The notes under the pieces were generated by a model. That model did not search any database. It had not been told where the DNA came from and was given only the letters and a program-made list of their open reading frames with translations. The translations under genes and the position numbers were made by a program. Below, piece by piece: positions 2,340 to 21,978 of a stretch of 64,000 nt of DNA. This stretch comes from Bacteroidota bacterium (GTDB lineage Bacteria; Bacteroidota; Bacteroidia; UKL13-3): contig JAIXWD010000016.1 of assembly GCA_027482225.1 (NCBI GenBank), forward strand, positions 142,050 to 206,049, in the 5' to 3' direction. Position 1 is the first letter of the stretch; every line of letters starts with the position of its first letter.

Positions 2340-2933
2340 TCAAAGTTTGTATTTGTGAATACCTGTCCAATCTAAATTATTAATTGTAAAATTGTTATTG
2401 GTAAAAAATGTGTTTGGGTTAATTCCTGTATAAGCATGTATCTTCATTAAAGACTTCGCGCTTACAATTAGTTTACCATCTTTTATTTTAGGCTTGGTAT
2501 TGGTAATATTTTTAATAAGCATGCTATAATACCTATACTCTTCTATTGATTTTTTTCTATCAATTTTAAATATATCATTAGAATTATATAATTGGTTGCT
2601 AAGTATTAATTTAAATGGAACCAATTCTTCATGTCTTATGCTTTTTTTTATAAGCTGTTGTATATCTATGGTAAATAGCGGACTTAAAACTAAATCAAAC
2701 GAATTTATATTTAATGTTTGATTCCATTTTAATGTGTTTATTTTTTTGATTGTATCATCATCAAAAATGAATAAACCATTTATCCCTTCCATTTTCCCAG
2801 TTTTTTCTATTAACCTGGCCAGTTGGTTAAATTGTTCTGCATTATATTTAAACAATTGTATGTGTCTTTCTGAGTTTTCGTCAAAGCCTACATACGTTGT
2901 TAATGTTGGTTGCTCCGCAATTTGTGTTACCAT
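2340..2933 (-). CDS. Hypothetical cytoplasmic protein in an AT-rich gene with no recognisable domain
   Basis: Clean 197-aa ORF with no signal peptide. GC is much lower than neighbouring core genes (roughly 27% by eye). It is convergent with recO. Confidence 0.5.
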   Translation of the reverse strand: MVTQIAEQPTLTTYVGFDENSERHIQLFKYNAEQFNQLARLIEKTGKMEGINGLFIFDDDTIKKINTLKWNQTLNINSFDLVLSPLFTIDIQQLIKKSIRHEELVPFKLILSNQLYNSNDIFKIDRKKSIEEYRYYSMLIKNITNTKPKIKDGKLIVSAKSLMKIHAYTGINPNTFFTNNNFTINNLDWTGIHKYKL

Positions 2934-3045: not shown

Positions 3046-3069
3046 TTTTGTAGTATTAAATCTACAAAA
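3046..3069. promoter_or_regulatory. 8-bp perfect inverted repeat (TTTTGTAG-n8-CTACAAAA) in the divergent intergenic region
   Basis: Read directly from the sequence. It lies between the divergently oriented 197-aa gene and the LuxR-type regulator gene. Confidence 0.35.
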
Positions 3070-3156: not shown

Positions 3157-3864
3157 ATGTTAAGATTTCTTTATTTAGACGAACATGAATTGTGTCGTAT
3201 TGGTTTCAAAACCATTTTATCCGAAATTTCACCTTCATATATTTTAGATGATGCAGCTAACGCTGAGGAATTACTTAGCCTCTTTAAATTGCATTCACAC
3301 AGCATTGTTATAATTGAAATTAACCTCACTAATACCAATGTATACGAATTAGTTCTACAGATTCTAGAATTAAATGACAATTGTAAAATATTAATCTTGT
3401 CTTCTTTAAGTGAAAAACTATATGCCATTAATTACATTAAAATTGGCGTTAAAGGATTTGTAGCCAAATACGAATCGGCTAAAACTATTAAAGAAGCAAT
3501 TAATGCTATGGTTAATAATAAACGCTTTTTTAGTGATACTGTTATTGATATGCTTTTAAATTTATCTTACAATACACCACGCTCTAATTTGGCTGATAAA
3601 CCTCATGTTAATGGAAGTAATAGGGTAATAGTTCAGCCCAAACTTAGTTTAAAAGAAAGTGAAATATTAAGGATGATTTTACAAGGTATGGGTACCAAAG
3701 AAATTGCTAATGCAAATAGCATAAGATTAAATACCGTTAGCACATACAAATCGAGAATTTTTGAAAAATTTAACGTGAAAAATCTTGTTGAATTAATGCA
3801 AATTGTGAAACAAAATAACATGTATGATGCCTCAGGAATTGAACAGCATTATACACAATATTAG
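3157..3864 (+). CDS. Atypical LuxR/NarL-family response regulator with a Glu at the phospho-acceptor position
   Basis: The C-terminal LuxR-type HTH (ESEILRMILQGMGTKEIANANSIRLNTVSTYKSRIFEKF) is clear. The N-terminal receiver-like domain aligns to NarL with conserved Ser/Thr (ILSSLSE) and Lys (GFVAKYE). The acceptor Asp is replaced by Glu (IVIIEINL) and the acidic pair DD is DE. Confidence 0.75.
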   Translation: MLRFLYLDEHELCRIGFKTILSEISPSYILDDAANAEELLSLFKLHSHSIVIIEINLTNTNVYELVLQILELNDNCKILILSSLSEKLYAINYIKIGVKGFVAKYESAKTIKEAINAMVNNKRFFSDTVIDMLLNLSYNTPRSNLADKPHVNGSNRVIVQPKLSLKESEILRMILQGMGTKEIANANSIRLNTVSTYKSRIFEKFNVKNLVELMQIVKQNNMYDASGIEQHYTQY

Positions 3865-4036
3865 TGGTTTTTTATTATTACCTTTTGATGCTATAGTGTA
3901 ATTTTTTTTAAATAAATTATTACATTTTTTTTCAAAAAGTAGAATTAATACTACGTTTTTTCTGCTATTACTCTACAAATGGTAAAAGACTAGCATACGA
4001 ATTTCGCATCGAATTTAAAATCAATCGATACGATCT

Positions 4037-7000
4037 ATGTTTAAAGTTACATCAATTAGGGTAATAACACTACTGTTATTAGTTTTTATTCATTTTTCTG
4101 GTCATTCTCAAAATACTTTAGATGGTGTTGGTTTAACCGCAGCAACACCTTCTACAGTTTCATTTAGTTTACGTAAATTAAGTTCTTCATACTCGGGCCC
4201 AGCAATCCAAGTTAGGCGCAGTTCCGATAACGCCACACAAAATATTGGCTTTGATGTGAATGGTAACCTAGATACTGCTGCTCTTATTTCATGGGTGAGC
4301 AGTGGGTCTGGTTTTGTTTCTATTTGGTATGACCAAAGTGGTAATGGATTAAATGCTACACAAGCTACAGCGGCTAACCAACCAGCAATTGTCATTTCAG
4401 GTAATATTAATAGATATAATGGAAGAGTTGCCATAAGTTTTGATGTTATTAGCCAGCACTTTGCTATTTCTTCATTACCCAACACTTTGGTATGGACTAA
4501 CGGTGTATCATCCAATGCAGTTGTTGCATTTAATAATAATGCAAATTGGGCAAGAGTATACGATTTTGGAAATGGAGCAGGAAATAATAACATTCTACTT
4601 ACTCGCAATAGTACTAGTAATACAATAACATTTAGTTTATATGATGGAGGTAATACAACTGCACAACCTTCCGTAACCAATGCTATATCAACAGGCATCA
4701 ATAATATTTATACTACCATTCAGTCGGCTGCTACTTACCCTGGTTCAGCGGCAACCAATATACGCGTAAATGGATCGGCACAAACAACTGCTCCAGCAAC
4801 ATCTAATATCACCCAGCAGGTTACACGTACAAGTAATTTTATTGGCAGGAGCAATTGGAGTGGTGATGCCTATTTTAATGGCAGTATGCAAGAGTTGTTG
4901 TTTTTTAATGTTGCTTTAACAACAACTCAGGCTCAAACACTTGAAAATAGTCAAAGTAGTTACTATTCAATAAATCAACCAACTATCACAAGTACCGCAA
5001 CAGGTGGTAATTGGACAAGTCCTTCAACTTGGGTTGGAGGTGTTGTGCCAAGCAGCACTAATAACGTGGTAATTGCAACTACAGGAGCAAATGCTGTTAC
5101 ATTAAATACGACTGCTACTGTAAATAACTTGGTAATTAATAGTAACTCTAGATTAAATACCGGAGTAAATTCAATAAGTGTATCAGGAGCATTAACATGT
5201 AATGGGATAATATTAACAGCTAGTAGTCAAGGTGTAATTGGAACATTTCCCGGGTTACCATTAAATCGAATTATTTTAAATACGGGTTCTACTGTAGATT
5301 ACATCGGAACAACTTCACAAAATATTTCACCATTAACTTATGGTAATTTAACAGTAAGCAATACTTCTGCACCTAGCACTTTAACAGGTACAACAAGTGT
5401 AGCAGGAAATTTAACCATAAATACCTCTGCTATTTTAGATAAAAGTACTTTTGGTTTAACAGTTAGTAATACTATTTTTAATAACGGAACTTTTAGAACA
5501 AGTGGTGGACGACTTTCAACAGCTGGTGGTACTGCTTATAATTTAGCTTTTGCTACTGGTGCAAATACCTTAGATACTTTAATCGTGAATAGGTCAGCAC
5601 CCATTACATTAACTTCGCCATTAACTATAAATAACTTATTAACGTTAACCAGTGGTATACTAACGGTACCTGCTGGTAATTTAACCCTTTCAACTAATGC
5701 AATTGCAACAGGTGGTTCTAACACTGCATTTATAAACGGACAAGTAATTGTTAATACAAATACCACAAACAGCAGAAACATACCTTTAGGCAAAAACAAT
5801 TTACTTGGTTCAATATCTCTAATGCCTGAATCATCTGCGGCATCAACCTATACTTTAGAGTATTTTAATGGGGCTGGTGTTACTCCTAATTCAGGAAACT
5901 TAGGGGCAGGTTTAGCAGGTGTTGCTACCAATCAATTTTGGAGTATAACTAAAATTGGTACTAATGCTTCATTTACCTTCAATTACAATAGTTCACCGGG
6001 AGGTACCAATGCTCAACAAATTACATTAGTTAAGCGTACAGGAGGTCAGTGGGTTATACAACCAACCTATAGTAGTAGCATGGCTAACGCTTCTAGTGGG
6101 CAAGCCACATCTGTAAATGCCATTACTGGTAGTTATGGTGATTTTGGTTTAGGATTTATTAATGGAGCAGCTGAAAATGGTTTAGATAGTATAGGTTTAA
6201 CAGCCGCTACACCTGCTGCTGCAGCTTATGCCATGCGCAAATTAAGAAGTGCATACAATGGAGCTGCCTTACGTATTAGAAGAAGCAATGATAATTTAGA
6301 AACCAACATTGGTTTTGATGCAAATGGTCATTTAGATACAACTGCAATTAAAACTTTTACGGGTGTAAATGATGCTTATGTTACCACATGGTACGACCAA
6401 AGTGGTAATAACCGTAATTTTATACAAAACACCCTTGCCAACCAACCTCGAATTGTGTTAGCAGGTGTAATAGATCGTAAAAACGGACAGCCCGCCATTA
6501 GGCATTTGGCAGCAAATACCCATAACCTTAATGTTAATACAGGTGGTTTTGTAACCAATAATAACCCCTGGAGCGTAAGCACTGTATCTGGTTTAGATGG
6601 TGGTGCAAACCAAAGGGTGCTAAGTGGTAACACCAATTGGTTTTTAGGATTTCATGGTGGAGGTGAGAGAAGAGCCTTTTTTGCTAATGTATGGATGCGA
6701 TACAATGGGGTAGATAATTATAACAACGCCACAGCAACTACAAACAACCAAATATACACTGCCGTATCTAATGGAAGCAGCGCAAGTGTATTTAACAATG
6801 GTATGCAATTAGCGGGCACTGTGCCTTCAGGAAATACCTCAATTGGAACATTGTCTACAGGTGGTGGTTTTGGTGAATTCTCAAACTGTGTGGTTCAAGA
6901 AGTAATCATCTTTTCATCAGCTTTATCTTCAGCAAATAGAGCAAGTATAGAGCGAAGCCAAGGACTATATTATGCCATTGGTAATTTTGCCATAAGCACG

Positions 7001-10000
7001 CCTGCAGGTGGTAATTGGAGTAACCCAGCAACTTGGGAAAATGGGGTAGTGCCCACAACATCATCAGATGTGGTGATAAACGCAACAGCAGGTGCTGTGG
7101 TTTTAGATATAAATACCAGTATACGATCAATTAATAACGCACATTTGGCCACCCTAAATTTAGGAGCCGCCAATAACATTACAACGTCTTTAGATGTGAT
7201 TAACCAAGGCACATTAATTACTGCACATCCAAACGGATTAATAGGTAGTAGTGCATCTTTAAATATTGGTGGTACCATTTTAAATACGGCATACAATACC
7301 AGTCGTGTGGTATACAATGGAGCTAATCAATTGGTTAATCCGATATCTTATCGAAATTTAAGTTTATTAAATACGAGCAGTACAAAAACATTGCTTATAG
7401 GTTCGGTAACAACAGTTAGCGACACACTTTTTATAGATAATGGTGTTACGTTTAATAAATCAGCGAATGATTTAAACCTAGCTTGTTTAACTGGCACGGG
7501 TTTATTGTCATCTACAGGTGGTTTACTGCGTTTTAATACTTTTAATATTGCCAATATTGGAACATTACGCATGGCACCTGCTCCCAATAATTCTGTTGCA
7601 TTATTTATTTTATCTAATTTTTTCGCTAATGCATCTTTAACATTGGGTACACCATTGCAAGTAACAACAGATGCTACCTTAGATGCTGGAATTTTAAATA
7701 CCGATTCTGTAAACATATTAAGTCTAATAAATGCAAGTACTATAATGAGTAGGTGGAGCCCCGCTACATTTGTTAATGGCCCTGTTCAATTAATAAGTTC
7801 TTCTATTACCACAAGACAAATTGCAGTTGGTAAAAATGGTACGGGAAATCGAATTTTTATTACACCGCAATCTACTGCTACTACTGTATATAATATTGAG
7901 TATTTTAAAGGAAATGGCAGCGTACCTAACACGTCAAGTTTTGATAGTATTGGTTTGTTTAAAGTATATGATAACCAGTATTGGCGCATCAACAGAACAT
8001 CGGGTGTGGCTAATATTAGGGCTGAATTCGCTTTGAATACAGCTATTAACGGTGGCGTTGCCACAGAAACAGTAACTTTAGCCAATTTTGTGGGTGGTCA
8101 GTGGGTTTCTGTTCCAATTGATAGATTTTTATCGGCTACTGCAGCATTACCTACAGCTATTGCCACCCCTGTGGCAATTAGTAATACGGGGTTATTTGCA
8201 TTTGCCAGCGAAAAAGCAATTGCAACAGCACAAAGTGGCGCATGGAATAACCCCAACACATGGGCTGGTGGATTGGTACCCTCTGTATTTCAATCAACTT
8301 TTATTTCGCCTGGCCATACAGTTGCTGTTTCATCTGCGGCTGAAGCATTAAGTATTACGGTTGCTGCTGGCGCTACATTAGATTTAACTACCAACCAAAT
8401 TACTGGAACCTCGAGTGGTATAATAAATAATGGCACAATATTAACTTCACGCAATGCAGGTTTAATAGGAAGTGGCGCATCTTTACCTGCATGCAATACA
8501 ACTAATACCATTTTAAATGCTGGCAGTAGGGTTATTTATAACGGTGGAGGAGCACAAACAATAAGTGCTCTTACCTACAGGAAATTAACCATAAACAATT
8601 CAGCTTCTACTAAAACATTAGCCGGTAACACGGTTGTTTCCGATTCTTTAACTATTAGTACATTATGTACACTAAATAAAGGGGGATTTAATTTAAATTT
8701 AAACAATGGTATTTTTGGTAGCGGATTTTTACAATCAACAGGTGGTGCTTTTACACTTAGTGGTAATGCATTAAGAAACACCATACAGCTAAATAATTTT
8801 GCCAATACTACAATAAATATTAACTCAACGGCATCTGTTACTGATGTTAGTGCAATTACCCACAGTGGTTTAACTTTAAACATGCAAGCAACTGGTGCAA
8901 CCGACACTGTAAATTTAGTTACACCGCTTTCTGTTGCAAATATTTCGTTGTCTTCAGGATTCATTAAAACAGATTCCATTAATATTTTAACATTAACCGG
9001 AAACGGTACTTATGGTTCAAATGCTTCATACATTAATGGACCTGTGCAGTTTAATACCAGTTCAACCAACAACGTAATACTTGGTTTGGGTAAACAGGGC
9101 ACTTCAAGTAATGTAATAATTACCCCAACTACATCAGTTGCTACCGTTTGGCGAGCAGAGTACTATAGAAGTACACCAACTGCCGCACCTTTAGCTTCTA
9201 ATTTGTTGGGTTTAGGTAATAATCATTATTGGACACTAAGCAGAAACAACACCAACAACGCCATAGTTTCTGTTGGTATTAATCAAGCTGCTGGTGGCAC
9301 ATCTGCCAATACTTTAAAGATGGCTATGTTTACCAACAATACGTGGGGTAATGTACCCATAACAGAAAATACAATATTGGCTAATACCAATATAGCTACA
9401 ATAACATCAGCATCAAGTGTGGTTTTAAATAGCAGTGCTGGTGAAATAGATTATTTCGCATTAGGATTTGGCTCATTGCCTGGTGCACTTCACACTATTG
9501 CAAATGGTAATTGGACTAATCCTGCAATATGGAGCACCAATATTGTTCCATCTACAGGCGATAGCGTAACCATACGCACAGGTTTTACTGTAAATTTAGA
9601 TACAACTATTTTACCAGGTACAGGTCCAAGCACAGTATTAATTCAAACAAATGCTAAACTTAATATCAATTCGGGAGTTATATATTACAACTCTGGAGCT
9701 AATAATAATTTAGTACAAAGCTTAATAACTACAGGTGCTAATCCTTCTGTTGTGTTGGGTTTAAGAAGGCTTTCATCAACATACAATGGTCCTGCAATAC
9801 AGGTAAGAAGGGGTAGTGATAATGTCCTACAAGATGTATTTTTTACATCAGCTGGTAATTTAAATACCAGCACCTTATTGAATTTTGCAGCGGGTTCAAG
9901 TTTGTTTGTGGTAAGGTGGTACGATCAATCTGGTAATGGAAGAGATTTTGTACAAAATACGCCAGGTAACCAACCACGAATTGTAAACAATGGGGTATTA

Positions 10001-13000
10001 GAAATCAAAAATAACCAACCCGCCATAAGGCACATAGCCGCTAATAACAATTTCTTATTTGGTGGTTCGTTGGGTTTAGCTAATAATTTCTTTACCGTAA
10101 ATGTAGTGTCTTCTAATGATGGCGCCACAACAGGCCGGATGTTATCATCTGAAGCCAATAATTGGATGCTAGGCTTTCATCCGGGTATAGAACGTACTGC
10201 ACATTTTGGTGGTGGGAATTGGCAAGTTTACAACACACCTACTACCCCAGCTAACCAAATTTATACCGCTGTTGGTCAAAATACTAATAATGCATTAATA
10301 TATAGAAACGGAACTTTACTACCATTATTGGCTGTGCCATCTAACCGCCCAATTGATTTGAGAACCGCAGGAGCTTATGCTCAGTGGGCTGATGGAACCA
10401 TGCAAGAAATAGTAATTGTACCAACTGCATTAAATGATGCTCAAAGGAACTCAATTGAAAATTCGCAACAATCTTATTATTTAAATGGGGTTTCATTTAT
10501 AACAACTAATGGTATCATCAACAATGGTACAATAGGAATTGCAGATGCCAACGGGTTAGATTCTGCTGTTGTTGGTACTGGTCCAATTTTTAATTCAAGT
10601 TCAACTTTAAATTACAATGGTAGCAGTCAAAATATAACAGCAGTTGTAGCTTCCAATTTGGTATTATCTGGTTCGGGTACTAAAACAATGGTTGGCGATG
10701 TTACTGTTACAGGAAATTTAACGGTTAACAGTGGAATAACGTTTAACAAATCAAACCGCAACTTAAGTTTTTCAGGAACCACCATTACCAATAATGGTAT
10801 AATGCAATCTACGGGAGGTACTTTATCACTTACAGGTAGTGGTAACATTAACATTGGGTTTAATGATGCTACAAATAATGTGTTAGGTAATTTAGTATTA
10901 AGCAGGGGAGGTTCTCATACGCTAACAAATCCTTTAACGATTAATACAAGTATTGCATTAAACAATGGTATTTTAAATACTACAGTTACAAATATAATTA
11001 ACCTTGGTGGCAAAGCAACTACAATAGGTGGCAGTAATACCAGCCACATCAACGGGCCATTAAATTTAATTACAAATTCCTTGTTTCAAAGAACTGCACC
11101 TATAGGTAAAAACAATATGTATGCTCCAGTTCAAATTCAACCACAAACACAAACACAAACAACATACACTGTGCAATACTTTAATGGTGCAGGTGTTACA
11201 CCAAATTCCAACAACAGAGGCCCAGGTATTATAGGTGTTGCAACCAACCAATATTGGAGTATTACCAGAAATAACAGTAACAATGCCATTGTAGGTGTTG
11301 GTTTTAACACAAGTGCAGGTGGTACCAGTGCACAGCAATTGGTGCTAGCCAACAAAATTATCAACACTTGGACACGTAACTCAGTAAACAATACCATATT
11401 AGGTAATGCAATATCAGGTAATTTTGCAACGCAAAGTTTTGTTTCAAATTTTGGTGATTTTACTTTAGGTTACACAAGTGCGTTACCAGATAATGGCTTG
11501 GATAGTTTGGGATTGAATAACACCACAACAACTTCACTTGCTTTAAGCCTACGCAGGTTAAGAAGTGCTTACCAAGGCCCTGCTATAAGGGTTAATCGTT
11601 TAAGAGATTCTGCCGAATTAGACATTTATTTCCAAGACAATGGTTTTTTAGATACCTTAACCTTAAAGAATTTTGCAGCAGGCGCAACAGGAGAAAACTT
11701 GGTTACGTTTAGCGAGGATTTTGATAATTCGGTTTACATCAGAAATGGATCCTCAGCATACAGTATTTTTCCTAATGTAGCCCTTTCACCAATTGGCACA
11801 CTTACTGCCGATTCTATGAACCTAGGTCGCACCAATGGGCAGTGGGATGTGTTTCGTCAAATAAATAATTTAGTAATTGGGCGTACCTATACTTTGTCTA
11901 TGTATATAAGGCTAGGTACTGCCAATAATTTTAATGTGGTTGTAAATAATACCGCTGCTTGGAACACCATTGGTGGTAATTCTTATAATGCCAGCAATGC
12001 CTCATTAAATAATGCAACATGGCAGCGCATAAGCTATACTTTTGTTTGCCCTGCAACCGGTAGGGTTAACGTGCATTTAGGTAGCCATGGCGGTAATCAA
12101 ACTGGCGTTACAGCACAAAGCAATGGTTCTGTTTATATTTGGGGTTTTCAGCTAGAAGAAGGGAGTTCTGCTAATATGTATATTGCCACTGGGCCAATTA
12201 GCATACTTAATTCCGTTAACGTAAAAACATGGTACGATCAAAGTGGTAATGGAAGGCATGCAGTACAAAATAATATTTTTTTACAACCCACTTTAACCTT
12301 AAATGGTGTAATTAATTACATGAATAACAAACCATCTATGTTATATGATGGTGTTGATGATGGTTTTTTAATTAATAACATACCAACAGTTAATAACAAT
12401 GTAAATAGCTTATTCTGGGTGCAACGCGCTACAAAAAACACATACATGAATTTATTCCCTAATACATCTCCCTCAAACGGAATAATCAATTCGGGTAATA
12501 GAATGTTGTTAGCCAGTTTAGGCGATGGAAGTACGGACGTAATAACGGGATTAACCAATAATATTTCCTCGTTTTTAATTAATGGTTTCCAAACAGGTTG
12601 GAGCTCATCTACCACGCGAAATGTGGTTCATCAAGCTTTACAATTTAATCCGTCTATTGTTAATTCGTTAAACCAGCCGTTTAACTTTAATGGTAATATG
12701 GTAATAGCTAACGGACATACAGGTTGGAATTTTGGTGGTGATATGCCCGAAATAGTGGTAACTACTTCTACGTTAGATAGTGCAAGACGCGTTGCGGTTG
12801 AATTAAGTATGGGCAGGTATTATGGCATTGTTACCAAAGAAAGTGATGCTTGGGTAAGTACAGATGTTGGTGGAAACTGGAGCGATATCAATACTTGGGT
12901 ACAAAACTCTGTACCACCTGCAGGAGCAGCTATTGCCATTGCAACAAAGGGAAATAATAGTGTAGTATTAGATACAACCATGACATTCTCTGGTATTACC

Positions 13001-16000
13001 GTGCGTGCAGGTGCAACCCTTAATTTAGGCAATAGTAGAACAACCACATTAAGCGGCCAATTAATTAATAATGGAACTATTATCACATCACATCCTAATG
13101 GTTTAACTGGTGTTTCTGCATCTGTAGTAGGAACAGTAACGCATAATATTGGAAGTACAATTATTTATAATGGTAGCAGCCAAATAGTCACTCCAACAAG
13201 TTACCGAAACTTAAGGGTAAGTGGATTAAATACCATAAAAACAATGGCAATGGGGGCATTAACAGTAAATGATACCCTTACTATAGATTCTGGAGTAACG
13301 TTTGTACAATCAAACAGTGCATTAACTTTAAACGGTAATATATCTGGTACTGGTTTTTTACGACCTAATCCAAGCAATGCAATAAGTATTGGTGGGGGTA
13401 ATGGTGGTAATTTCGGAACTATTCATTTTGATACCCTTACTAATATGAATATAGTGGGTACATTTACTTTAAATAGATCTGGAATTAATCCGTCACTAAC
13501 ACTTGGAAATAACTTACAAGCAAACTCATCAGTTAACCTAAACAATGGATTATTAAATACAAGTAATGGTGCCCTACTAATATTAAATAATATTGGTACA
13601 ATTGGTTCAGGTGGTTCGTATATTAATGGCCCTGCTAGGTTAATTAATGCATCAACTAATACAAATAGAACGATTCACGTAGGTAAAAATGGTCTTTTAG
13701 GAGCAGTTACAATCAATCCTGGTGCAACAAGTTCTACCTCTTGGGATGTTCAATACTTTGGAAGTACACCTGCAAATATTGGTAATGTTAGTGGTACTAT
13801 ATCATCATTAAGCCCAACACAGTATTGGAGTGTAACCAAAAACAGCTCACCAGCTGCAAGTCCAATTTTAGCATTTAATTTTAACCAAGCTCCGGGCGGG
13901 TTGGCAACATCAAGTTTGGCATTGGTAAGGTATCTAACCAATTGGCAGTTGGTGCCTGTTACAGCAAATAGCCTTAATGGTTTATCAGCAAGTGGTACCT
14001 TAACTACTTCTGGTTCTGTATCGTTTCCTGTTGGAGTAAATGGCAATGATTTTGCAATTGGTTATCCAGCACCATTTGAAACTAAAAAATCGGGTAATTG
14101 GAGAGATACATCTGTATGGGTTATGGGTGCAGTTCCTCCTTTGGGTTCAAGGGTATTTATAAGAGCTTCTCATGTGGTTACCGTAGATACTACAATTGCA
14201 ACAGCAGGTACACCATCAAGTATATCTATTTTAAATGGAGGGGAGTTGGTATTCAATTCAATAAATACAATTGGTGCTGTGGCAAGTGGAGTAACTGTTG
14301 CAGGAACTTTAACCACTGCTCATGCTGGTGGAATTAGCACAAGTATAGCGGGCACTATTACCTTTAGTAATGGTAGCCGTTTACGCTACAATGGAGCAGC
14401 TCAAAATGTAACAGCGATAGATTGTGAAGAGCTTGTATTAGAAGGTTCTGGAACAAAAACGCAAACAGGAGCAATATTGGTGAACGATACATTATTAATT
14501 GGTAATGGAATTACGTTTGCTAATTTAACACAAACACTTACTCTATATGGTAATTATGTGTCAAATGGTGGAGGCATAAGTAGCAGCAATGGGAATATAA
14601 TTGTTGGTGGATCGTTAGGTGGTCATTTTGGTAGTTTAAACTTATCTGGAACATTGGCAAACTTTACATTTAGAAGATATGGATCATCACCATCTTTAAA
14701 TGTGGTTAATCCGTTTAGCGTAGCTAATTTAGTTATCGAAAATGGGATAATAAACACAGATACTAACAATGTAATTACATTAACAGGATCGGCAACTTTA
14801 GGTTCATCATCTGCCCATATCAATGGTCCAATAAGGGTAATAACCACATCAGTTTCACCTTTAATTTTACCAATTGGTAAAGGAGGAATTTTAGGTTCTA
14901 TTAATTTTACTCCAAGTACCGCTTCAACAACAACTTGGTATGCCGAGTACTTTAATGCGGCACCAGGAAATACCAATGTTGATACAACCATTAGTTCAAT
15001 AAGTGCATCACAATATTGGTTGTTTAGCCGCTTATCAGGTACAGCCAATGCCGCAGTTACTTTTAATTTTAATAAATCTGCAGGAGGTAACTCATCACAG
15101 GCAATTACTTTAGCACGTTTTGCTTCATCAGCTTGGACACTTCAAAATACGGCATTAAATAATTTAAATGGTGCCACCGTAAATGGTTCATTAAGTTTGC
15201 CAACGCAATCTTTATTCAGTTATTTCGGTGTTGGGTTTTTTAATGAGTTTTTTTCTGTAGCCTCTGGCAACTGGTCTAGTCCTTCTACTTGGAATACCAA
15301 TTCGGTTCCTACATCATCTGCTCGAGTTACCATAAATTCAGGACATGTTGTTAATGTTTTAGGTACCATTAATCCTAAAAGTATAATAATAGAGGCAAAC
15401 GCCCAACTTAACTTAGATACTTTCCAAGTAATTGGTCAGGATGTTACAGTTGATTTAATAGGTACAATTGAAACGGCTCGTGCAGGTGGGTTAATAGGCA
15501 CAGGTGCATCCATTGAACAAGGTAATATTTTGTTAGGTTCATTCGCCAAGGTAGTATACAATGGCTCGGTTCCGCAAGTATTATCGCCATTAAGTTACCG
15601 TAAATTGGTTATAGCAAATCCAGCGGGAGTAACAGCAGGTAACAATCTTATACTTGGCGATTCATTCATTGTATCTTCAGGATTTTTAAATCTCTCAACA
15701 TTCAATCTTACATTAACCGGTGGCTTTAATATGGAATCTAATGCTAGGGGTATTAGAGCAAGTGGAAACAATAACATACAGATTTCATCATCAGGTAATC
15801 TTATGATGGATACCACTGTTAGAGGTGTTACAAATAGGTTGGCTAACTTAACTATAACTGGATCTAATTTAGTAACGCTTTTAAATTTCCTTGAGGCCAA
15901 AGTAGAAGTTAGTGTGAGTGGAGCTAATTTAAACAGCAATGGATTTCTAACATTAATTTCTGATTCATTAGGCACTGCAAGAGTAGCTGCATTGGTATCG

Positions 16001-17662
16001 CCTGCTCAAATAACAGGTAATGTAATTGTGCAGAGGTATATTCCTGCTATAACCCGTAGATCTCGACAGCTTACTTCACCAGTGACTGGTTTTACCTATA
16101 ATCAATTAATTGATGACATTTTCGTTACTGGCCCTGTCGGTGGTATAGGATTCGATATTTCTACTACCAATAATGCATCAATTAATACTTATAACGAACA
16201 AACATCTAACGGAAGGGGCAATAAACCAGTCCAAAATATTAATGACACATTGTTGCCAGGTTTAGGGGCTTTTGTTTTCATTAGGGGAGACCGAACTCTT
16301 CCTTCGCCACAATGGTTTACTCCACCGTTTGTGCCACAAAATGCAGTTACATTAGATTTTGTTGGACCAATTAATCAAGGAGTAGTTTCTCCGCAAATAA
16401 CCTATACACCCACAGGTACACCAACTAATGATGGTTGGAATATGGTAGGAAATCCTTTCCCATCACCAATTGATTGGAGCTTGGTAAATAAAACTGGTTT
16501 AACACCTTTTTACTATACACTAAATCCTTCAACAGGTTCATCTGTGGCTGCTAATGTAGGTATTATAGCATCTGGTCAAGGTATATTTGTACAAGCCTCA
16601 TCAGCTAATCCTACCATTACTTTTAGTGAGTCTTCAAAAGTTTCTGGTACTCCTACAAATTATTTTAAAACCAGTACACCGCCATTATTAATTACCATGA
16701 CAAGGGATGCATTAAATAGTGATGTTGCTATGATGAATTTTAATGCAACATATAGCAGGTCATTTAACAATATGGAAGATGCCTTTAAAATGACAAATGC
16801 TGTTATAAATCTTTCTTTATATGCTGGTACAACGCCTGTTCAAATAAATGGTTTACCAATATTATCTCCATTGGCAACTGATACGTTTGATATAGGTGTA
16901 GATGCTTCTGCTGGTAATTATTCTTTACGATTTAATAATTTAATTGCTATACCAACTGGCTTAAATAGTTATTTAATAGATAGGATGCTTAATACCACTT
17001 TACCAATAGTTGCTGGTGTTGATTATCCGTTTAGTATATCAAGCAGCCCTGCATCGTTTGGTAAAAGATTTGCGATTGTTTTTTCTCCGCTTAATCCTTT
17101 ACCTATTAAGTTACTTAGCTTTAATGCAGCTAAAAGTAATGATAACGTGGTGTTAAATTGGCGCACAGCTTCCGAGTTAAATATGCAAAGTCATATTTTA
17201 GAAAGAAAACTTAGCACTGATTTAACATTTAAAGAAATAGCAGTTATTAAGCCTAATACGGGTGCAGTAGTTGCAACTAACTATGCATACACCGATGCTG
17301 ATATACTAAATAATGCCAGTGGTTTAATATGCTACAGGATAAAGTTGGTAGAAACAAATAAATCATCGTTAAACAGTCATGTTGTTTGTATAGATCCAGT
17401 CATTACAACATCTGCAGCCAACATTTTACTGTTACCAAACCCAGCTCAAGAGGGCGATGTGGTAAAATTAAAAATAGCAGGTTTACAATACGATAGTTAT
17501 GAAATACATGTTGTTGATCTGCTAGGAAGAGTAATACATAAGCAACTAAGTACTACAAACGATATAGATATTGATACCAAACAATTTGATTCTGGTATTT
17601 ATAATATTTTGTTGTTGTCTGATGGCGTTTTGTTGGGAACATCAAAGTTATCAATACAATAA
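4037..17662 (+). CDS. Giant (4541 aa) T9SS-secreted cell-surface protein containing signal peptide, repeated LamG-like jellyroll domains, seven beta-solenoid-like supermodules, one CBM-like insertion, a conserved pre-CTD domain and a type-A T9SS CTD
   Basis: Uninterrupted 13.6 kb ORF. The N-terminal signal peptide is MFKVTSIRVITLLLLVFIHFSGHSQ. The motif (R/K)(K/R)L(S/R)S.Y.GPAI.V.R..D followed by WYDQSGNG....QP.IV recurs at ~4325, 6389, 9917 and 12229. Seven G(G/N)W..P.TW..G.VP...D.V.I motifs occur at ~5004, 7007, 8237, 9506, 12869, 14093 and 15266, each followed by YNG..Q.V...SYR.L, INGP and EYF.G...YW motifs. The C-terminus (LLPNPAQEGDVVKLKIAG...GIYNILLLSDGVLLGTSKLSIQ) is a Por secretion tail. 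Confidence 0.85.
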   Translation: MFKVTSIRVITLLLLVFIHFSGHSQNTLDGVGLTAATPSTVSFSLRKLSSSYSGPAIQVRRSSDNATQNIGFDVNGNLDTAALISWVSSGSGFVSIWYDQSGNGLNATQATAANQPAIVISGNINRYNGRVAISFDVISQHFAISSLPNTLVWTNGVSSNAVVAFNNNANWARVYDFGNGAGNNNILLTRNSTSNTITFSLYDGGNTTAQPSVTNAISTGINNIYTTIQSAATYPGSAATNIRVNGSAQTTAPATSNITQQVTRTSNFIGRSNWSGDAYFNGSMQELLFFNVALTTTQAQTLENSQSSYYSINQPTITSTATGGNWTSPSTWVGGVVPSSTNNVVIATTGANAVTLNTTATVNNLVINSNSRLNTGVNSISVSGALTCNGIILTASSQGVIGTFPGLPLNRIILNTGSTVDYIGTTSQNISPLTYGNLTVSNTSAPSTLTGTTSVAGNLTINTSAILDKSTFGLTVSNTIFNNGTFRTSGGRLSTAGGTAYNLAFATGANTLDTLIVNRSAPITLTSPLTINNLLTLTSGILTVPAGNLTLSTNAIATGGSNTAFINGQVIVNTNTTNSRNIPLGKNNLLGSISLMPESSAASTYTLEYFNGAGVTPNSGNLGAGLAGVATNQFWSITKIGTNASFTFNYNSSPGGTNAQQITLVKRTGGQWVIQPTYSSSMANASSGQATSVNAITGSYGDFGLGFINGAAENGLDSIGLTAATPAAAAYAMRKLRSAYNGAALRIRRSNDNLETNIGFDANGHLDTTAIKTFTGVNDAYVTTWYDQSGNNRNFIQNTLANQPRIVLAGVIDRKNGQPAIRHLAANTHNLNVNTGGFVTNNNPWSVSTVSGLDGGANQRVLSGNTNWFLGFHGGGERRAFFANVWMRYNGVDNYNNATATTNNQIYTAVSNGSSASVFNNGMQLAGTVPSGNTSIGTLSTGGGFGEFSNCVVQEVIIFSSALSSANRASIERSQGLYYAIGNFAISTPAGGNWSNPATWENGVVPTTSSDVVINATAGAVVLDINTSIRSINNAHLATLNLGAANNITTSLDVINQGTLITAHPNGLIGSSASLNIGGTILNTAYNTSRVVYNGANQLVNPISYRNLSLLNTSSTKTLLIGSVTTVSDTLFIDNGVTFNKSANDLNLACLTGTGLLSSTGGLLRFNTFNIANIGTLRMAPAPNNSVALFILSNFFANASLTLGTPLQVTTDATLDAGILNTDSVNILSLINASTIMSRWSPATFVNGPVQLISSSITTRQIAVGKNGTGNRIFITPQSTATTVYNIEYFKGNGSVPNTSSFDSIGLFKVYDNQYWRINRTSGVANIRAEFALNTAINGGVATETVTLANFVGGQWVSVPIDRFLSATAALPTAIATPVAISNTGLFAFASEKAIATAQSGAWNNPNTWAGGLVPSVFQSTFISPGHTVAVSSAAEALSITVAAGATLDLTTNQITGTSSGIINNGTILTSRNAGLIGSGASLPACNTTNTILNAGSRVIYNGGGAQTISALTYRKLTINNSASTKTLAGNTVVSDSLTISTLCTLNKGGFNLNLNNGIFGSGFLQSTGGAFTLSGNALRNTIQLNNFANTTININSTASVTDVSAITHSGLTLNMQATGATDTVNLVTPLSVANISLSSGFIKTDSINILTLTGNGTYGSNASYINGPVQFNTSSTNNVILGLGKQGTSSNVIITPTTSVATVWRAEYYRSTPTAAPLASNLLGLGNNHYWTLSRNNTNNAIVSVGINQAAGGTSANTLKMAMFTNNTWGNVPITENTILANTNIATITSASSVVLNSSAGEIDYFALGFGSLPGALHTIANGNWTNPAIWSTNIVPSTGDSVTIRTGFTVNLDTTILPGTGPSTVLIQTNAKLNINSGVIYYNSGANNNLVQSLITTGANPSVVLGLRRLSSTYNGPAIQVRRGSDNVLQDVFFTSAGNLNTSTLLNFAAGSSLFVVRWYDQSGNGRDFVQNTPGNQPRIVNNGVLEIKNNQPAIRHIAANNNFLFGGSLGLANNFFTVNVVSSNDGATTGRMLSSEANNWMLGFHPGIERTAHFGGGNWQVYNTPTTPANQIYTAVGQNTNNALIYRNGTLLPLLAVPSNRPIDLRTAGAYAQWADGTMQEIVIVPTALNDAQRNSIENSQQSYYLNGVSFITTNGIINNGTIGIADANGLDSAVVGTGPIFNSSSTLNYNGSSQNITAVVASNLVLSGSGTKTMVGDVTVTGNLTVNSGITFNKSNRNLSFSGTTITNNGIMQSTGGTLSLTGSGNINIGFNDATNNVLGNLVLSRGGSHTLTNPLTINTSIALNNGILNTTVTNIINLGGKATTIGGSNTSHINGPLNLITNSLFQRTAPIGKNNMYAPVQIQPQTQTQTTYTVQYFNGAGVTPNSNNRGPGIIGVATNQYWSITRNNSNNAIVGVGFNTSAGGTSAQQLVLANKIINTWTRNSVNNTILGNAISGNFATQSFVSNFGDFTLGYTSALPDNGLDSLGLNNTTTTSLALSLRRLRSAYQGPAIRVNRLRDSAELDIYFQDNGFLDTLTLKNFAAGATGENLVTFSEDFDNSVYIRNGSSAYSIFPNVALSPIGTLTADSMNLGRTNGQWDVFRQINNLVIGRTYTLSMYIRLGTANNFNVVVNNTAAWNTIGGNSYNASNASLNNATWQRISYTFVCPATGRVNVHLGSHGGNQTGVTAQSNGSVYIWGFQLEEGSSANMYIATGPISILNSVNVKTWYDQSGNGRHAVQNNIFLQPTLTLNGVINYMNNKPSMLYDGVDDGFLINNIPTVNNNVNSLFWVQRATKNTYMNLFPNTSPSNGIINSGNRMLLASLGDGSTDVITGLTNNISSFLINGFQTGWSSSTTRNVVHQALQFNPSIVNSLNQPFNFNGNMVIANGHTGWNFGGDMPEIVVTTSTLDSARRVAVELSMGRYYGIVTKESDAWVSTDVGGNWSDINTWVQNSVPPAGAAIAIATKGNNSVVLDTTMTFSGITVRAGATLNLGNSRTTTLSGQLINNGTIITSHPNGLTGVSASVVGTVTHNIGSTIIYNGSSQIVTPTSYRNLRVSGLNTIKTMAMGALTVNDTLTIDSGVTFVQSNSALTLNGNISGTGFLRPNPSNAISIGGGNGGNFGTIHFDTLTNMNIVGTFTLNRSGINPSLTLGNNLQANSSVNLNNGLLNTSNGALLILNNIGTIGSGGSYINGPARLINASTNTNRTIHVGKNGLLGAVTINPGATSSTSWDVQYFGSTPANIGNVSGTISSLSPTQYWSVTKNSSPAASPILAFNFNQAPGGLATSSLALVRYLTNWQLVPVTANSLNGLSASGTLTTSGSVSFPVGVNGNDFAIGYPAPFETKKSGNWRDTSVWVMGAVPPLGSRVFIRASHVVTVDTTIATAGTPSSISILNGGELVFNSINTIGAVASGVTVAGTLTTAHAGGISTSIAGTITFSNGSRLRYNGAAQNVTAIDCEELVLEGSGTKTQTGAILVNDTLLIGNGITFANLTQTLTLYGNYVSNGGGISSSNGNIIVGGSLGGHFGSLNLSGTLANFTFRRYGSSPSLNVVNPFSVANLVIENGIINTDTNNVITLTGSATLGSSSAHINGPIRVITTSVSPLILPIGKGGILGSINFTPSTASTTTWYAEYFNAAPGNTNVDTTISSISASQYWLFSRLSGTANAAVTFNFNKSAGGNSSQAITLARFASSAWTLQNTALNNLNGATVNGSLSLPTQSLFSYFGVGFFNEFFSVASGNWSSPSTWNTNSVPTSSARVTINSGHVVNVLGTINPKSIIIEANAQLNLDTFQVIGQDVTVDLIGTIETARAGGLIGTGASIEQGNILLGSFAKVVYNGSVPQVLSPLSYRKLVIANPAGVTAGNNLILGDSFIVSSGFLNLSTFNLTLTGGFNMESNARGIRASGNNNIQISSSGNLMMDTTVRGVTNRLANLTITGSNLVTLLNFLEAKVEVSVSGANLNSNGFLTLISDSLGTARVAALVSPAQITGNVIVQRYIPAITRRSRQLTSPVTGFTYNQLIDDIFVTGPVGGIGFDISTTNNASINTYNEQTSNGRGNKPVQNINDTLLPGLGAFVFIRGDRTLPSPQWFTPPFVPQNAVTLDFVGPINQGVVSPQITYTPTGTPTNDGWNMVGNPFPSPIDWSLVNKTGLTPFYYTLNPSTGSSVAANVGIIASGQGIFVQASSANPTITFSESSKVSGTPTNYFKTSTPPLLITMTRDALNSDVAMMNFNATYSRSFNNMEDAFKMTNAVINLSLYAGTTPVQINGLPILSPLATDTFDIGVDASAGNYSLRFNNLIAIPTGLNSYLIDRMLNTTLPIVAGVDYPFSISSSPASFGKRFAIVFSPLNPLPIKLLSFNAAKSNDNVVLNWRTASELNMQSHILERKLSTDLTFKEIAVIKPNTGAVVATNYAYTDADILNNASGLICYRIKLVETNKSSLNSHVVCIDPVITTSAANILLLPNPAQEGDVVKLKIAGLQYDSYEIHVVDLLGRVIHKQLSTTNDIDIDTKQFDSGIYNILLLSDGVLLGTSKLSIQ
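4990..16100 (+). repeat. Seven diverged intragenic tandem supermodules of ~1.2 kb (~400 aa) within the giant gene, repeated at protein level
   Basis: The ordered motif series GxW..P.TW / YNG..Q / INGP / EYFxG..YW recurs seven times. There are no long identical DNA repeats, so the duplication is ancient or diversified. Confidence 0.6.
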
Positions 17663-17679: not shown

Positions 17680-18324
17680 ATGAATTTGGCATATCAAATT
17701 ATTATAAAGAGGGGAGTTTTTTTCAGTTTATTATTTTTAACAGCTTTCGATTCCATAGCCCAAAGCGCTTATGGTCAAGCGGGGGATGATGATATCTATA
17801 GTGACTATGGTTATCAGTATTCAAACTATTCTAATTCTGTTTATGAGTTTTCTGAAGAAGAAAAATATAGAAAAAGGCAAGAACGGTTTTATAAAAAAAG
17901 CTACGATGAAGAAGATTTATATAATGGTGGATACAGGGTGAAAAGTCGTTCATCGGAAGTTGATTATTACGCTTTTGGAGGTATTGGCTCAGGTAATATT
18001 GGTAATAGCGTTAAATCATGGTTTAATAGAGACAGTAAAAATGAATCACCTTTACCGAGTAACCAAGAAAAATATAACAACAACGAGGTTGGAACAATTG
18101 ACGGCATTGATAGGTTGGGTGAGGATGGAAAAAGCGGTTTAGCCAACAACAAAGATAATGGTGAGATTTTACAACCAAAAGATGATAAACAAACCGAAAC
18201 CGCACCACCACCGCCAGATGAACCTGATATTCCAATTACAAGTCCTTTATTAAGTATACTCATGATTGTTATAATGATAGGTGTAGCTGTTTTTAACTTA
18301 TCAAACAGATTTAAGATATTATGA
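17680..18324 (+). CDS. Tail-anchored secreted protein that is acidic, Tyr/Asp/Glu/Asn-rich low-complexity, and has a Pro-rich stalk and C-terminal transmembrane helix
   Basis: It has a signal peptide (FFSLLFLTAFDSIAQSA), low-complexity acidic region, PPPPDEPDIP stretch and a C-terminal hydrophobic helix (LLSILMIVIMIGVAVF). It starts 18 bp after the giant gene's stop codon. Confidence 0.55.
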   Translation: MNLAYQIIIKRGVFFSLLFLTAFDSIAQSAYGQAGDDDIYSDYGYQYSNYSNSVYEFSEEEKYRKRQERFYKKSYDEEDLYNGGYRVKSRSSEVDYYAFGGIGSGNIGNSVKSWFNRDSKNESPLPSNQEKYNNNEVGTIDGIDRLGEDGKSGLANNKDNGEILQPKDDKQTETAPPPPDEPDIPITSPLLSILMIVIMIGVAVFNLSNRFKIL

Positions 18325-19457
18325 AAATTAAAACTCTTGTTTTAACTTTAGTTTTGTTTTGTGCATCAACATGCATAGATGTGCAATCACAATCATTATT
18401 TGATAAGAGTACAATAACTGCCCATTCATCTTTAGGTAGAAATTACATCATTAATAATGAATTAGGTAATCCGGGAATGACTTGGACATTGGGCACCTTA
18501 TTTAATTTGGCTAATGTAGTTACTTTAGGATCTAATTACGCTGTGGGGAGTTCTAGCGGTGTAGAAGCTGAGGGAAGTTACAGAAATTCATTTAGAATTT
18601 ATGATGTTGATATTGGGTATATTAAAACATTTAAAAATGCAAAAAGCAACATAATAAATAAGTCATCACTTTCTATTTGTGGTGGTGTTGCACTTTTTCA
18701 TACTAATATTAATTCTTGGAGTGTTAAAAAGGGACTTGCAATATACGATATGTCTTTTTTCTCCTATAAGTTAGGAGCTGGCTACTCTTATAAATTAAAC
18801 GAATTATTAACAGCTAAGGCCAATGTTTCATATTATTTAACATTAACTAATTTATTAGATGGTTTAAACACTGGTAGTAAAGATGATTTACTGGTTTTTT
18901 CGTTAGGCCTTGGTTATAATATAAATGCTTTTGATGCGAGAAAGGAAAGATTACTCCTTTACAATGCGATTCAAGAAAACATAACTATAAACAACAAATT
19001 GTTAATGGAGATTGCAAAAATTGATGGTCAAAGTAAACAAGGAATTAAGAATAATGAATCTCAAAATGGATTAGTAAATGTTAAATCGGATTCAATCTTT
19101 AAAGACAAAGCAGTTAACAATTCAGATTCTTTAAAAATACCTTTAAGTTACACACTTGAAAATGCACCAGAAAAAAATAACGATTCAGTTAAGTATACTA
19201 TAAAGTACCCCCGACATAAATACAATGTAGTATTCGGAGGCTTTTTTAGCATAAAAAATGCACTTTCTGAAGTTGCAAAGATGAAGAAATCTGGTATTAA
19301 TGCTGAGCCCTATTGGAAAGGAGATAAAAGTAAACTGGTGTTTTTAGTTGTTTTCTCTAGTAATGATTATCAGGAAGCCCAAGAGAAGGTTAGATCTTTT
19401 AGGAAAAAGGGATACACTGATGTATGGTTATATACATCTAATTCAACCAAAAAATAA
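18321..19457 (+). CDS. Outer-membrane beta-barrel protein fused to a C-terminal SPOR (septal peptidoglycan-binding) domain
   Basis: It has a signal peptide. The N-terminal ~200 aa show alternating amphipathic beta-strand character with Y/G-rich turns, as in OMP beta-barrels. The C-terminal ~75 aa (YNVVFGGFFSIKNALSEVAKMKKSGINAEPYWKGDKSKLVFLVVFSSNDYQEAQEKVRSFRKKGYTDVWLY) fit the SPOR pattern. Its start overlaps the upstream gene by 4 bp (ATGA). Confidence 0.55.
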   Translation: MKIKTLVLTLVLFCASTCIDVQSQSLFDKSTITAHSSLGRNYIINNELGNPGMTWTLGTLFNLANVVTLGSNYAVGSSSGVEAEGSYRNSFRIYDVDIGYIKTFKNAKSNIINKSSLSICGGVALFHTNINSWSVKKGLAIYDMSFFSYKLGAGYSYKLNELLTAKANVSYYLTLTNLLDGLNTGSKDDLLVFSLGLGYNINAFDARKERLLLYNAIQENITINNKLLMEIAKIDGQSKQGIKNNESQNGLVNVKSDSIFKDKAVNNSDSLKIPLSYTLENAPEKNNDSVKYTIKYPRHKYNVVFGGFFSIKNALSEVAKMKKSGINAEPYWKGDKSKLVFLVVFSSNDYQEAQEKVRSFRKKGYTDVWLYTSNSTKK

Positions 19458-19463: not shown

Positions 19464-20177
19464 ATGAATATTCAAAATCAATCAGAATTTGATTCGAGGT
19501 ATGATTTATTCTTACATGCTGCTCACGAATTAAACACTCCTTTAACGTCTTTAGTAATGGCAACCTTTTTATTAAAGAACGATAAGACGAATTTTGAAAG
19601 TAGGCAAAAATTTTTAAATAGCGTAAATGTTATTGAACGTTCTTGTGATAGACTTCAACGAACCATAAATAATGTAATTCTTTATCATCGATTACAACAA
19701 CCTAATTTCCCAGTATACGATCAAAAGTTAGTAGAGGTGCTTTTTCTTATAAGAGAATGCGCAGAAAAAATATCAAATCAACAAGGTAGAACTGGTGATA
19801 TTGTTTTTAATTTTTCTTTAGATTCTGATGTTGGGTTGTTAATTCCACGTGAATATTTTATGGTAATGATTAATGAGTTAATTCATAATGCATTTAGCTT
19901 TTCTGAAGTTGGATCAAAAGTTATAATCAATTATAGACTATCAAATAAATTTGGTGTTTTTTCTATTACCGATTTTGGCATTGGTATGGGAAAAGAAGAG
20001 GTATCGGCAATAGGTGCTTATACTCAATTTAACAGAGGAATATTGGAACAACAAGGCTTAGGGTTAGGGTTAACTTTAGTGAAACAATTAACGGATAAAC
20101 ATTTTGGTGAGTTAAAGATTAACTCTAGTAAAGGAAAAGGTACAACCGTTCAGTTATGTATTCCTTTGTATTGTTAA
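19464..20177 (+). CDS. Minimal cytoplasmic histidine kinase with HisKA H-box and HATPase_c, lacking sensor and transmembrane domains
   Basis: The H-box (HELNTPLTSL) begins at residue ~21. The N box is NELIHNAF, G1 is DFGIGMG and G2 is GLGLGLTLV. It has no hydrophobic segments. An in-frame stop immediately upstream precludes a longer N-terminus. Confidence 0.75.
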   Translation: MNIQNQSEFDSRYDLFLHAAHELNTPLTSLVMATFLLKNDKTNFESRQKFLNSVNVIERSCDRLQRTINNVILYHRLQQPNFPVYDQKLVEVLFLIRECAEKISNQQGRTGDIVFNFSLDSDVGLLIPREYFMVMINELIHNAFSFSEVGSKVIINYRLSNKFGVFSITDFGIGMGKEEVSAIGAYTQFNRGILEQQGLGLGLTLVKQLTDKHFGELKINSSKGKGTTVQLCIPLYC

Positions 20178-20397: not shown

Positions 20398-20766
20398 TTA
20401 TCTGCTTAATCCATATTTATCTATAAACGGAAGATTGAATGAATTGCTTTTGGCGCGGTAAATAACCTCACAATTGTTTATTTTATTGCAAATTGCATCA
20501 ACAGGTCCCCATGCATAATTACAGGTGCCTATTTTATCTCCAGATTCATTATATACCACAGTACCTCCATCGTAAACTAATTGACTAAGGCAATATACTT
20601 TTTGGTTGTTGAGAGTACATTCTGAAATTTCTCCGTTAGGGTTTTGCTTATATAGCATATTTACTACCTGATGTTGTAAAGGTTCATCTTTTTTACAACC
20701 GCTGTTGATTAGTATGAATAAGCTTGAATATAGTATAAGGTACTTCATCTTAGTTAATAGATTCAT
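20398..20766 (-). CDS. Small hypothetical lipoprotein
   Basis: It has a signal peptide with a lipobox-like LINSGC. It is 122 aa and Cys-containing. Confidence 0.45.
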   Translation of the reverse strand: MNLLTKMKYLILYSSLFILINSGCKKDEPLQHQVVNMLYKQNPNGEISECTLNNQKVYCLSQLVYDGGTVVYNESGDKIGTCNYAWGPVDAICNKINNCEVIYRAKSNSFNLPFIDKYGLSR

Positions 20767-21927: not shown

Positions 21928-21978
21928 GTATCAAATAATATTCTTTTTTTATTGTGTTGAATACTTTTTTGTATTCTT

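Follow-up and report, generated by a model that had tools for sequence, protein, structure and literature searches.

In histidine kinases under Rec control (Rec-HKs), a receiver (REC) domain precedes the dimerization and histidine phosphotransfer (DHp) and the catalytic and ATP-binding (CA) domains. The unphosphorylated REC domains of one such kinase, LvrB of Leptospira, keep the alpha-S helices separated and the CA domains locked, and phosphorylation of REC releases this lock (PMC13269768). Among response regulators, Glu is a frequent replacement of the acceptor residue in pseudo-receivers, the activation mechanisms of bacterial pseudo-receivers have been termed "a mystery", and CmrT and FrzS are the only non-orphans among 20 characterized atypical regulators (PMC12632262). 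CmrT of Clostridioides difficile carries Glu53 with the other pocket residues kept and has been reported to be constitutively active, and expression level is considered to control its activity (PMC12548384). The locus described here lies in a 64-kb stretch of Bacteroidota DNA (positions 142,050 to 206,049 of contig JAIXWD010000016.1, assembly GCA_027482225.1; hereafter the window) and brings a kinase and a regulator of unusual build together around one operon. The operon encodes a giant cargo protein of the type IX secretion system (T9SS) and ends with the gene of a 237-residue stand-alone histidine kinase core, for which descent from the Rec-HKs is proposed; a LuxR-type regulator with an Asp-less receiver is encoded upstream.

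The kinase gene begins with an ATG directly after the codons TAA (19455-57), TTT, and TAA (19461-63). Both stops are in frame, and the open reading frame (ORF) of the 378-residue protein immediately upstream shares the reading frame of the kinase. Read-through into a longer kinase is excluded because the two stops directly precede the ATG. In Pfam searches the protein was matched by HisKA (PF00512, residues 14-79, 44.8 bits against a cut-off of 26.9) and HATPase_c (PF02518, residues 134-235, 59 bits against a cut-off of 26.4). Pfam and NCBIfam scans gave no further domain, neither PAS nor GAF nor any other; the NCBIfam matches were incomplete and below threshold, and they fell on the C-terminal cores of many sensor kinases. 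No membrane segment was detected by hydropathy (maximum Kyte-Doolittle mean over 19 residues 0.98, with none reaching 1.6). The AlphaFold2 model (predicted local distance difference test score 80, predicted template-modelling score 0.78) consisted of a helix at residues 3-39, a helix at residues 47-78, and an alpha/beta sandwich, and nothing more. It superposed over its full length (~232-240 residues) on the crystallized cores of DivL, HK853, and WalK with template-modelling scores of 0.75-0.81; Foldseek E-values were 1e-14 to 1e-15 against the DivL and HK853 cores, and the best match was the C-terminal core of DivL. The protein is a complete class I (HisKA-type) catalytic core, soluble and without an input domain, and as an enzyme it is of an ordinary type. 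A first-pass annotation of this DNA had placed the H-box about 20 residues from the N-terminus, had taken an in-frame stop to bar a longer protein, and had noted that a transmembrane helix and PAS, GAF, or other input domains were lacking; all of this was borne out, with hydropathy, Pfam, NCBIfam, and the structural model in agreement.

Only 20 residues precede the acceptor His21 of the H-box HELNTPL, which is followed by Glu22 at H+1 and Thr25 at H+4; all three are invariant in the orthologues. The H+1 residue is the general base of the kinase reaction and the H+4 residue is required for phosphatase activity (PMC8292422). In the N-box (E138-L-I-H-N142-A-F-S145-F-S147), the Mg-binding Asn142 is kept and is likewise invariant. 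Position N+3, usually a Lys or Arg that contacts the ATP triphosphate (PMC10312584), is Ser145 in the window kinase (nucleotides 19896-19898). Orthologues of 75-96% identity have Ser at this position, those of 54-56% identity have Asn, and the Rec-HK relatives mostly have Lys; the equivalent stretch of VicK and WalK reads NNAIKYS. In the G1 box, D170 (adenine-binding in homologues), G172, and G174 are invariant among the orthologues, as are F189 and R191 of the F-box and G198-x-G200-x-G202 of the G2 box. The residues kept suggest a functional-looking ATP site and a catalytically plausible enzyme. The earlier statement that the N, G1, and G2 boxes are intact was thus correct for Asn142, G1, and G2 and overlooked the loss of the N-box Lys/Arg. 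A lack of ATP-binding residues had been named as a finding that would count against the kinase, and Asn142, Asp170, and the Gly boxes were present and invariant. A pseudo-histidine kinase was considered and rejected, given that His21 is present together with these residues and just the N-box Lys is gone.

Eight orthologous kinase clusters, 54-96% identical and all of 236-250 residues, were found in a search of 5.8 billion proteins. In the two longest annotations an earlier start overlaps the upstream gene, and conservation at the N-terminus sets in at the matching Met. The ratio of non-synonymous to synonymous substitution rates (dN/dS) was 0.14-0.27 against four orthologues, indicating purifying selection. 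Residues T28, S29, M32, A33, and L36 (H+7, +8, +11, +12, and +15), which we take to be response-regulator docking positions by the HK853-type interface, are invariant. A longer protein disrupted by a frameshift was rejected: next to the two in-frame stops, the upstream ORF encodes a secreted protein, the two genes are separate in all orthologous loci, and the orthologues share length and N-terminus, which also answers the earlier concern that the true start might lie elsewhere. The short gene is real and selected, and is not an artefact. Kinase loci were present in 2 of 185,579 species-representative genomes, both of them metagenome-assembled genomes (MAGs) of freshwater Bacteroidia, and on 2 further short Joint Genome Institute (JGI) contigs. 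Among 1.84 billion representatives the orthologue group formed a single 50%-identity cluster; scores in this search were summed and the ranking was dominated by multi-core proteins, which makes it uninformative on nearest relatives. The family is confined to a few lake Bacteroidia with uncultured hosts. No usable literature figure was found for how common sensor-less kinases are.

Relatives outside the orthologue group were collected by word- or pattern-filtered searches, and the lineage of the kinase was judged by which cores are closest to it in sequence, a criterion that is our own and not a published definition. All of the seven best non-orthologous kinase relatives (359-405 residues) carry a REC domain, which in every examined one is N-terminal and followed by a linker and then the core. 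Of the four highest-scoring non-orthologous matches in the species genomes, two, L010 (ranked first) and L013, are again of REC-DHp-CA build. A regular-expression scan for the signature [FY]xQFx[RS]....QQGxGxG recovered 18 of 215 retrieved proteins, 9 of them orthologues; in each of the 9 others REC lies directly N-terminal of the core and ends ~190 residues before the motif. The short kinases start where the REC alpha-5 helix of these relatives stops (alignment A4). Among the best 80 genome relatives only the two orthologues were without an N-terminal extension, and the 76 others with a closed frame had one of at least 111 residues (median 144). From these sequence comparisons we conclude that the kinase is probably a member of the Rec-controlled (REC-DHp-CA, LvrB type) lineage that lost its REC domain.

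Set beside the Rec-HKs, of which LvrB of Leptospira is the prototype and PhcR of Ralstonia a further example, the kinase core is of the same sequence subfamily, with 28-33% identity over 87-95% of the query, and both sides have the F-to-G2 signature IGAYxQFxR....EQQGLGLGLTL and the N-box E-L-x-x-N-A-F-x-F-S. As in LvrB, no downstream regulator adjoins the kinase. The defining feature of a Rec-HK, an N-terminal REC domain joined to DHp by an alpha-S helix, is absent here, together with most of the alpha-S linker; in addition, the N-box Lys is replaced by Ser or Asn and the G1 box reads DFGIG instead of DxGRG. An activation switch of the LvrB type is impossible in this protein because REC and most of alpha-S are missing. 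In L010, a Chitinophagaceae MAG, a PAS kinase is followed at once by a Rec-HK whose core belongs to this subfamily (8440-10708); this pair has the layout of the LvrA/LvrB two-kinase relay, without an adjacent downstream regulator.

The four genes from the giant gene to the kinase gene lie on one strand and are separated by 17, -4, and 6 nt; the gene after the kinase (20398..20766) is convergent. The giant protein matches Por_Secre_tail with 31 bits (cut-off 27) in its last 75 residues and also holds ArabFuran-catal-like modules, and its C-terminus is 73-86% identical in L002, L006, and L008. The cassette is conserved in nine loci (L001-L009) from four lineages with the kinase always as terminal gene: L002-L005, L008, and L009 belong to the lineage with a 75% identical kinase, L006 to the 56% lineage, and L007 to the 54% lineage. 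The genes downstream of the cassette in L006 are unrelated to those of the window. Few orthologues exist, and the synteny comparison reaches those down to 54% identity. The first-pass annotation had assigned the kinase to the end of an operon for a giant secreted protein and had proposed a survey for orthologues encoded beside giant proteins with a C-terminal sorting domain; the tight gaps, the convergent next gene, the Por_Secre_tail match, and the nine cassettes agree with it. Two side observations concern individual cassettes. In L004 (1-5405), a metagenome assembly, the giant gene is called as pieces of 1365 and 406 residues, reflecting either an assembly or frameshift problem in a repetitive gene or a real disruption. 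The L009 contig (75% orthologue) is labelled "Chitinophaga pinensis", which is doubtful: it is a metagenome bin, and its cassette matches loci of uncultured freshwater Bacteroidia.

The two proteins encoded between giant gene and kinase gene are less readily assigned. The 214-residue protein starts with a signal-like segment, has a low-complexity middle that is acidic and rich in Tyr, and closes with a membrane helix (~182-214; hydropathy 2.56 at residues 190-208) whose tail is short and basic; no family match was obtained for it in Pfam, NCBIfam, and a further search. Its C-terminus, a Pro/Asp/Glu-rich PPPPDEPDIP followed by the membrane helix and a basic RFKIL, recalls PEP-CTERM-type signals, none of whose models matched. 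The 378-residue protein, conserved upstream of the kinase in L002-L009, has an N-terminal hydrophobic segment, and its Pfam matches were all below cut-off (OMP_b-brl, 18.7 bits, E = 0.002; SPOR, E = 0.096; SOUL). Its earlier label as an outer-membrane protein (OMP) partner of the giant protein is unproven because no PorP/SprF match was found (Pfam at E up to 0.1; NCBIfam empty), the beta-barrel match being weak and the SPOR-like match sub-threshold.

The regulator upstream of the operon was matched by Response_reg (PF00072, 47.4 bits against a cut-off of 30.2) and GerE (57 bits) in Pfam. Its Glu54 (GAA, 3316-3318) aligns with Asp59 of NarL, and the pocket residues D8, E9, S82, and K104 are kept, as is a conserved alpha-1 helix. 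Glu occupies the acceptor position in 8 of 8 orthologous regulators, down to 53% identity, and non-orthologues have Asp. Judged by these residues, the regulator is a true pseudo-receiver and would be unable to accept a phosphoryl group. For this reason the circuit is non-canonical, as had been suspected from the pseudo-receiver upstream. The regulator is the sole REC protein and the kinase the sole kinase of the window; no other REC or kinase genes were found there. A 197-residue cytoplasmic protein is encoded divergently from the regulator and matched no recognizable sensor fold or family. It turned up in this clade alone, and three lineages keep it next to the regulator. Regulator, divergent gene, and recO are syntenic in three lineages, and a single 127-kb contig of the 75% lineage carries both ends of the locus, that of the regulator and that of the kinase.

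The palindrome GTAG-N8-CTAC has exactly two matches in the 64 kb, against a chance mean of 0.36, one upstream of the giant gene and one upstream of the regulator gene (Table 1); the latter has the extended form TTTTGTAG-N8-CTACAAAA. At the giant-gene position the motif is kept in L093, L094, and L095 and has one mismatch in L088, L089, and L091; at the regulator position it is kept in L092-L096 and has one mismatch in L088-L090. Of these loci, L094, L095, and L096 (regulator site only) represent the 75% lineage, and L092 and L093 the 54% lineage. The palindrome fits a dimeric LuxR-type operator and is a candidate binding site of the Asp-less regulator, and its two positions would imply autoregulation together with control of the giant operon, the kinase included. 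This candidate operator, which would place the whole operon under the Asp-less regulator, had gone unnoticed in the first-pass annotation, along with the Rec-HK descent and the loss of the N-box Lys.

Table 1 Features of the kinase locus in window coordinates, with the evidence used for each
Feature	Position	Strand	Evidence or remark
197-residue cytoplasmic protein, divergent from regulator	2340..2933	-	no family or fold match
Palindrome GTAGTATTAAATCTAC, candidate auto-operator	3050..3065		92 nt upstream of regulator gene
LuxR/NarL-type regulator, Asp-less receiver	3157..3864	+	Pfam; alignment A2 with NarL
Palindrome GTAGAATTAATACTAC, candidate operator	3939..3954		83 nt upstream of giant gene
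4541-residue giant repetitive protein with T9SS C-terminal sorting domain	4037..17662	+	Pfam
214-residue protein	17680..18324	+	translation, hydropathy; conserved in cassette
378-residue protein	18321..19457	+	signal peptide, weak OMP beta-barrel match, SPOR-like C-terminus
237-residue stand-alone histidine kinase core (DHp + CA)	19464..20177	+	Pfam, AlphaFold2, Foldseek, orthologues, dN/dS
H-box HELNTPL, residues 21-27	19524..19544	+	sequence; invariant in alignments A1 and A5
N-box ELIHNAFSFS	19875..19904	+	alignments A1 and A4
G1 box DFGIG	19971..19985	+	D170, G172, G174 invariant in orthologues
F-box to G2 box, QFNRGILEQQGLGLG	20025..20069	+	motif scan; alignment A4

The reading that we favor, tentatively and at somewhat less than an even chance, is that of a dosage-driven kinase that is made with the operon and signals to an unlinked canonical receiver. 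The Asp-less and presumably constitutively active regulator would probably drive the ~16-kb operon through the GTAG-N8-CTAC sites, and the kinase would be made only when the operon is transcribed. Since the kinase has no input domain, its output would depend on abundance, that is, on operon transcription, and its activity would be set mainly by amount. It would autophosphorylate His21, and the phosphoryl group would most probably pass to a canonical receiver that has the Asp and is encoded at another place in the genome, because Glu54 at the acceptor site disqualifies the regulator as phospho-acceptor. Expression of the giant surface protein would thereby be coupled to a second regulon. Isolated kinase cores are sufficient for the catalysis of phosphoryl transfer, and LvrC, the partner of LvrB, had to be found by phosphotransfer profiling (PMC13269768). 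An unlinked partner is also made plausible by the Rec-HK of L010, which adjoins the PAS kinase upstream of it and has no regulator adjacent downstream, and the invariant DHp docking positions were counted in favor of such a receiver.

Several points weigh against this dosage-driven reading. No phospho-acceptor was found in the 64 kb, where the sole REC belongs to the Asp-less regulator. Autokinase activity may be weak because the N-box Lys/Arg is absent in all orthologues. Co-transcription and regulator binding are deduced from spacing and motif conservation; sigma-70-like matches were no commoner than in shuffled sequence, no Bacteroidetes TAnnTTTG motif was seen in the intergenic regions, and a scan for a terminator after the kinase found none. 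Finally, LvrB's inactive state is enforced by unphosphorylated REC domains (PMC13269768), and the core here is without REC.

The main rival, which we consider unlikely, holds that the kinase DHp docks on the Asp-less receiver and modulates its dimerization or DNA binding, giving a phosphorylation-independent feedback on the operon. The only REC and the only kinase of the window flank one operon, and they have the same phylogenetic spread (regulator 94/80/59/54% and kinase 96/75/56/54% identity). Docking is further favored by the residues D8, E9, S82, and K104 and the conserved alpha-1 helix of the receiver and by the invariant docking residues of the DHp domain, and allosteric coupling of a kinase to a pseudo-receiver without phosphorylation was called conceivable in a review (PMC12632262). 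Pure binding, however, does not explain why His21, Glu22, Asn142, and the G1, F, and G2 boxes are so strictly conserved, and the contigs of the distant lineages are too short to show regulator and kinase together. NarL/LuxR-type regulators are, moreover, usually paired with HisKA_3 kinases, and the kinase here is of the HisKA type. A related arrangement, improbable to a somewhat greater degree than any of the rivals so far or in the next paragraph save the last, is an input-less pair in which the Glu-bearing regulator starts the 16-kb operon and the kinase, present only once the full-length transcript has been made and translated, either binds to the pseudo-receiver or phosphorylates its heterodimer partner and so tunes the level of the giant adhesin. 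If true, two-component parts would here form an inbuilt dosage feedback that reports "operon completed", with no phosphotransfer between the members of the pair.

Two further explanations appear quite unlikely, and about equally so. In one, the kinase acts mainly as a phosphatase or phospho-sink, or as a heterodimer connector in the manner of RetS/GacS, and damps another pathway when the giant operon is on. The conserved Thr25 at H+4 agrees with phosphatase activity, Ser145 in place of the N-box Lys/Arg could weaken the autokinase, and a DHp domain free of N-terminal domains could pair with others, for which RetS-GacS is the precedent (PMC8498467); against this, the protein retains Glu22 (the base), Asn142 (Mg binding), and Asp170 (adenine binding), and any heterologous partner is hypothetical. 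In the other, a separate protein delivers in trans the signal of the lost REC domain. Candidates are a free single-domain receiver, the short cytoplasmic tail of the 214-residue protein, and the 197-residue protein; the last of these keeps its place next to the regulator in three lineages, and no other role could be assigned to it. Input control is the rule of the family, as all non-orthologues among the best 80 relatives extend at least 111 residues N-terminally. The Rec-HK signal, however, runs through a covalently continuous alpha-S helix (PMC13269768), which would be hard to reproduce in trans; the 197-residue protein has no recognizable sensor fold, and the 214-residue protein has just ~8 cytoplasmic residues. 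Both roles had been raised in the first-pass annotation, where such minimal kinases were said usually to need an input partner or to act as phosphatases or connectors, and nothing was found that shows either. A non-functional remnant, or an assembly or frameshift artefact, is scarcely credible and is largely refuted by conservation: the family is narrow (2 of 185,579 species genomes, a single 50% cluster), but length and N-terminus are equal in independent assemblies from many samples, dN/dS is low (0.14-0.27), all catalytic motifs are invariant, and the upstream ORF encodes a secreted protein and not a sensor.

Two neighbors of the locus were noted in passing. The C-terminal part of a PorZ-like T9SS component (7-1560, + strand) lies two genes upstream of the regulator, recO being the gene in between; this part matches Reg_prop and weakly Por_Secre_tail, and its full 771-residue orthologue in L094 has PorZ_N_b_propeller. 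Beyond the convergent gene, a transketolase is split into N- and C-terminal halves encoded as separate genes (20974-24339, - strand) and interrupted by a 461-residue VWA-domain gene with a signal-like N-terminus, a layout kept in L001-L004.

The locus bears on two questions of the field, namely how natural input-less kinases are controlled and how Asp-less receivers are switched; both peculiarities occur here in a small and conserved setting, placed around a single operon that has a candidate operator. For Rec-controlled kinases, losing REC would be one evolutionary outcome, and the locus points to a layer of regulation over the giant T9SS surface proteins of abundant freshwater Bacteroidia.

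Compared with known systems, the kinase has the same domain content and nearly the same length as the engineered cytoplasmic cores HK853cp, WalK/VicK, and EnvZ, but those are laboratory truncations of membrane sensors, whereas this is a natural, conserved gene product. With PorY/PorX it shares a tie between a histidine kinase and T9SS biology in Bacteroidota. PorY is a membrane sensor; membership of the kinase in that family was rejected (NF052314, 50.9 bits against a cut-off of 350 in NCBIfam), and no PorX-like regulator was found at the locus. The pseudo-kinase DivL is the best structural match, and a non-catalytic binding role is one of the rival readings above; DivL lacks the phospho-acceptor His and has Tyr there, whereas the kinase retains this His along with Glu at H+1 and its motifs for ATP binding. 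The closest analogue of the whole locus is CmrRST of C. difficile (kinase CmrS, regulators CmrR and CmrT), in which a Glu-bearing, Asp-less receiver with its pocket kept is likewise encoded in the same locus as a kinase. CmrRST differs in having the canonical Asp regulator CmrR as kinase target (none lies within the 64 kb here), in an OmpR-type CmrT in place of a LuxR/NarL-type regulator, and in a kinase, CmrS, that is described as responsive to a signal (still unidentified), whereas the kinase here has no input domain; in CmrRST, moreover, no giant T9SS cargo operon sits between regulator and kinase. What is new is the combination of a natural, REC-less core of probable Rec-HK lineage and a Glu-bearing LuxR-type regulator with a conserved candidate operator, with a giant T9SS operon between the two.

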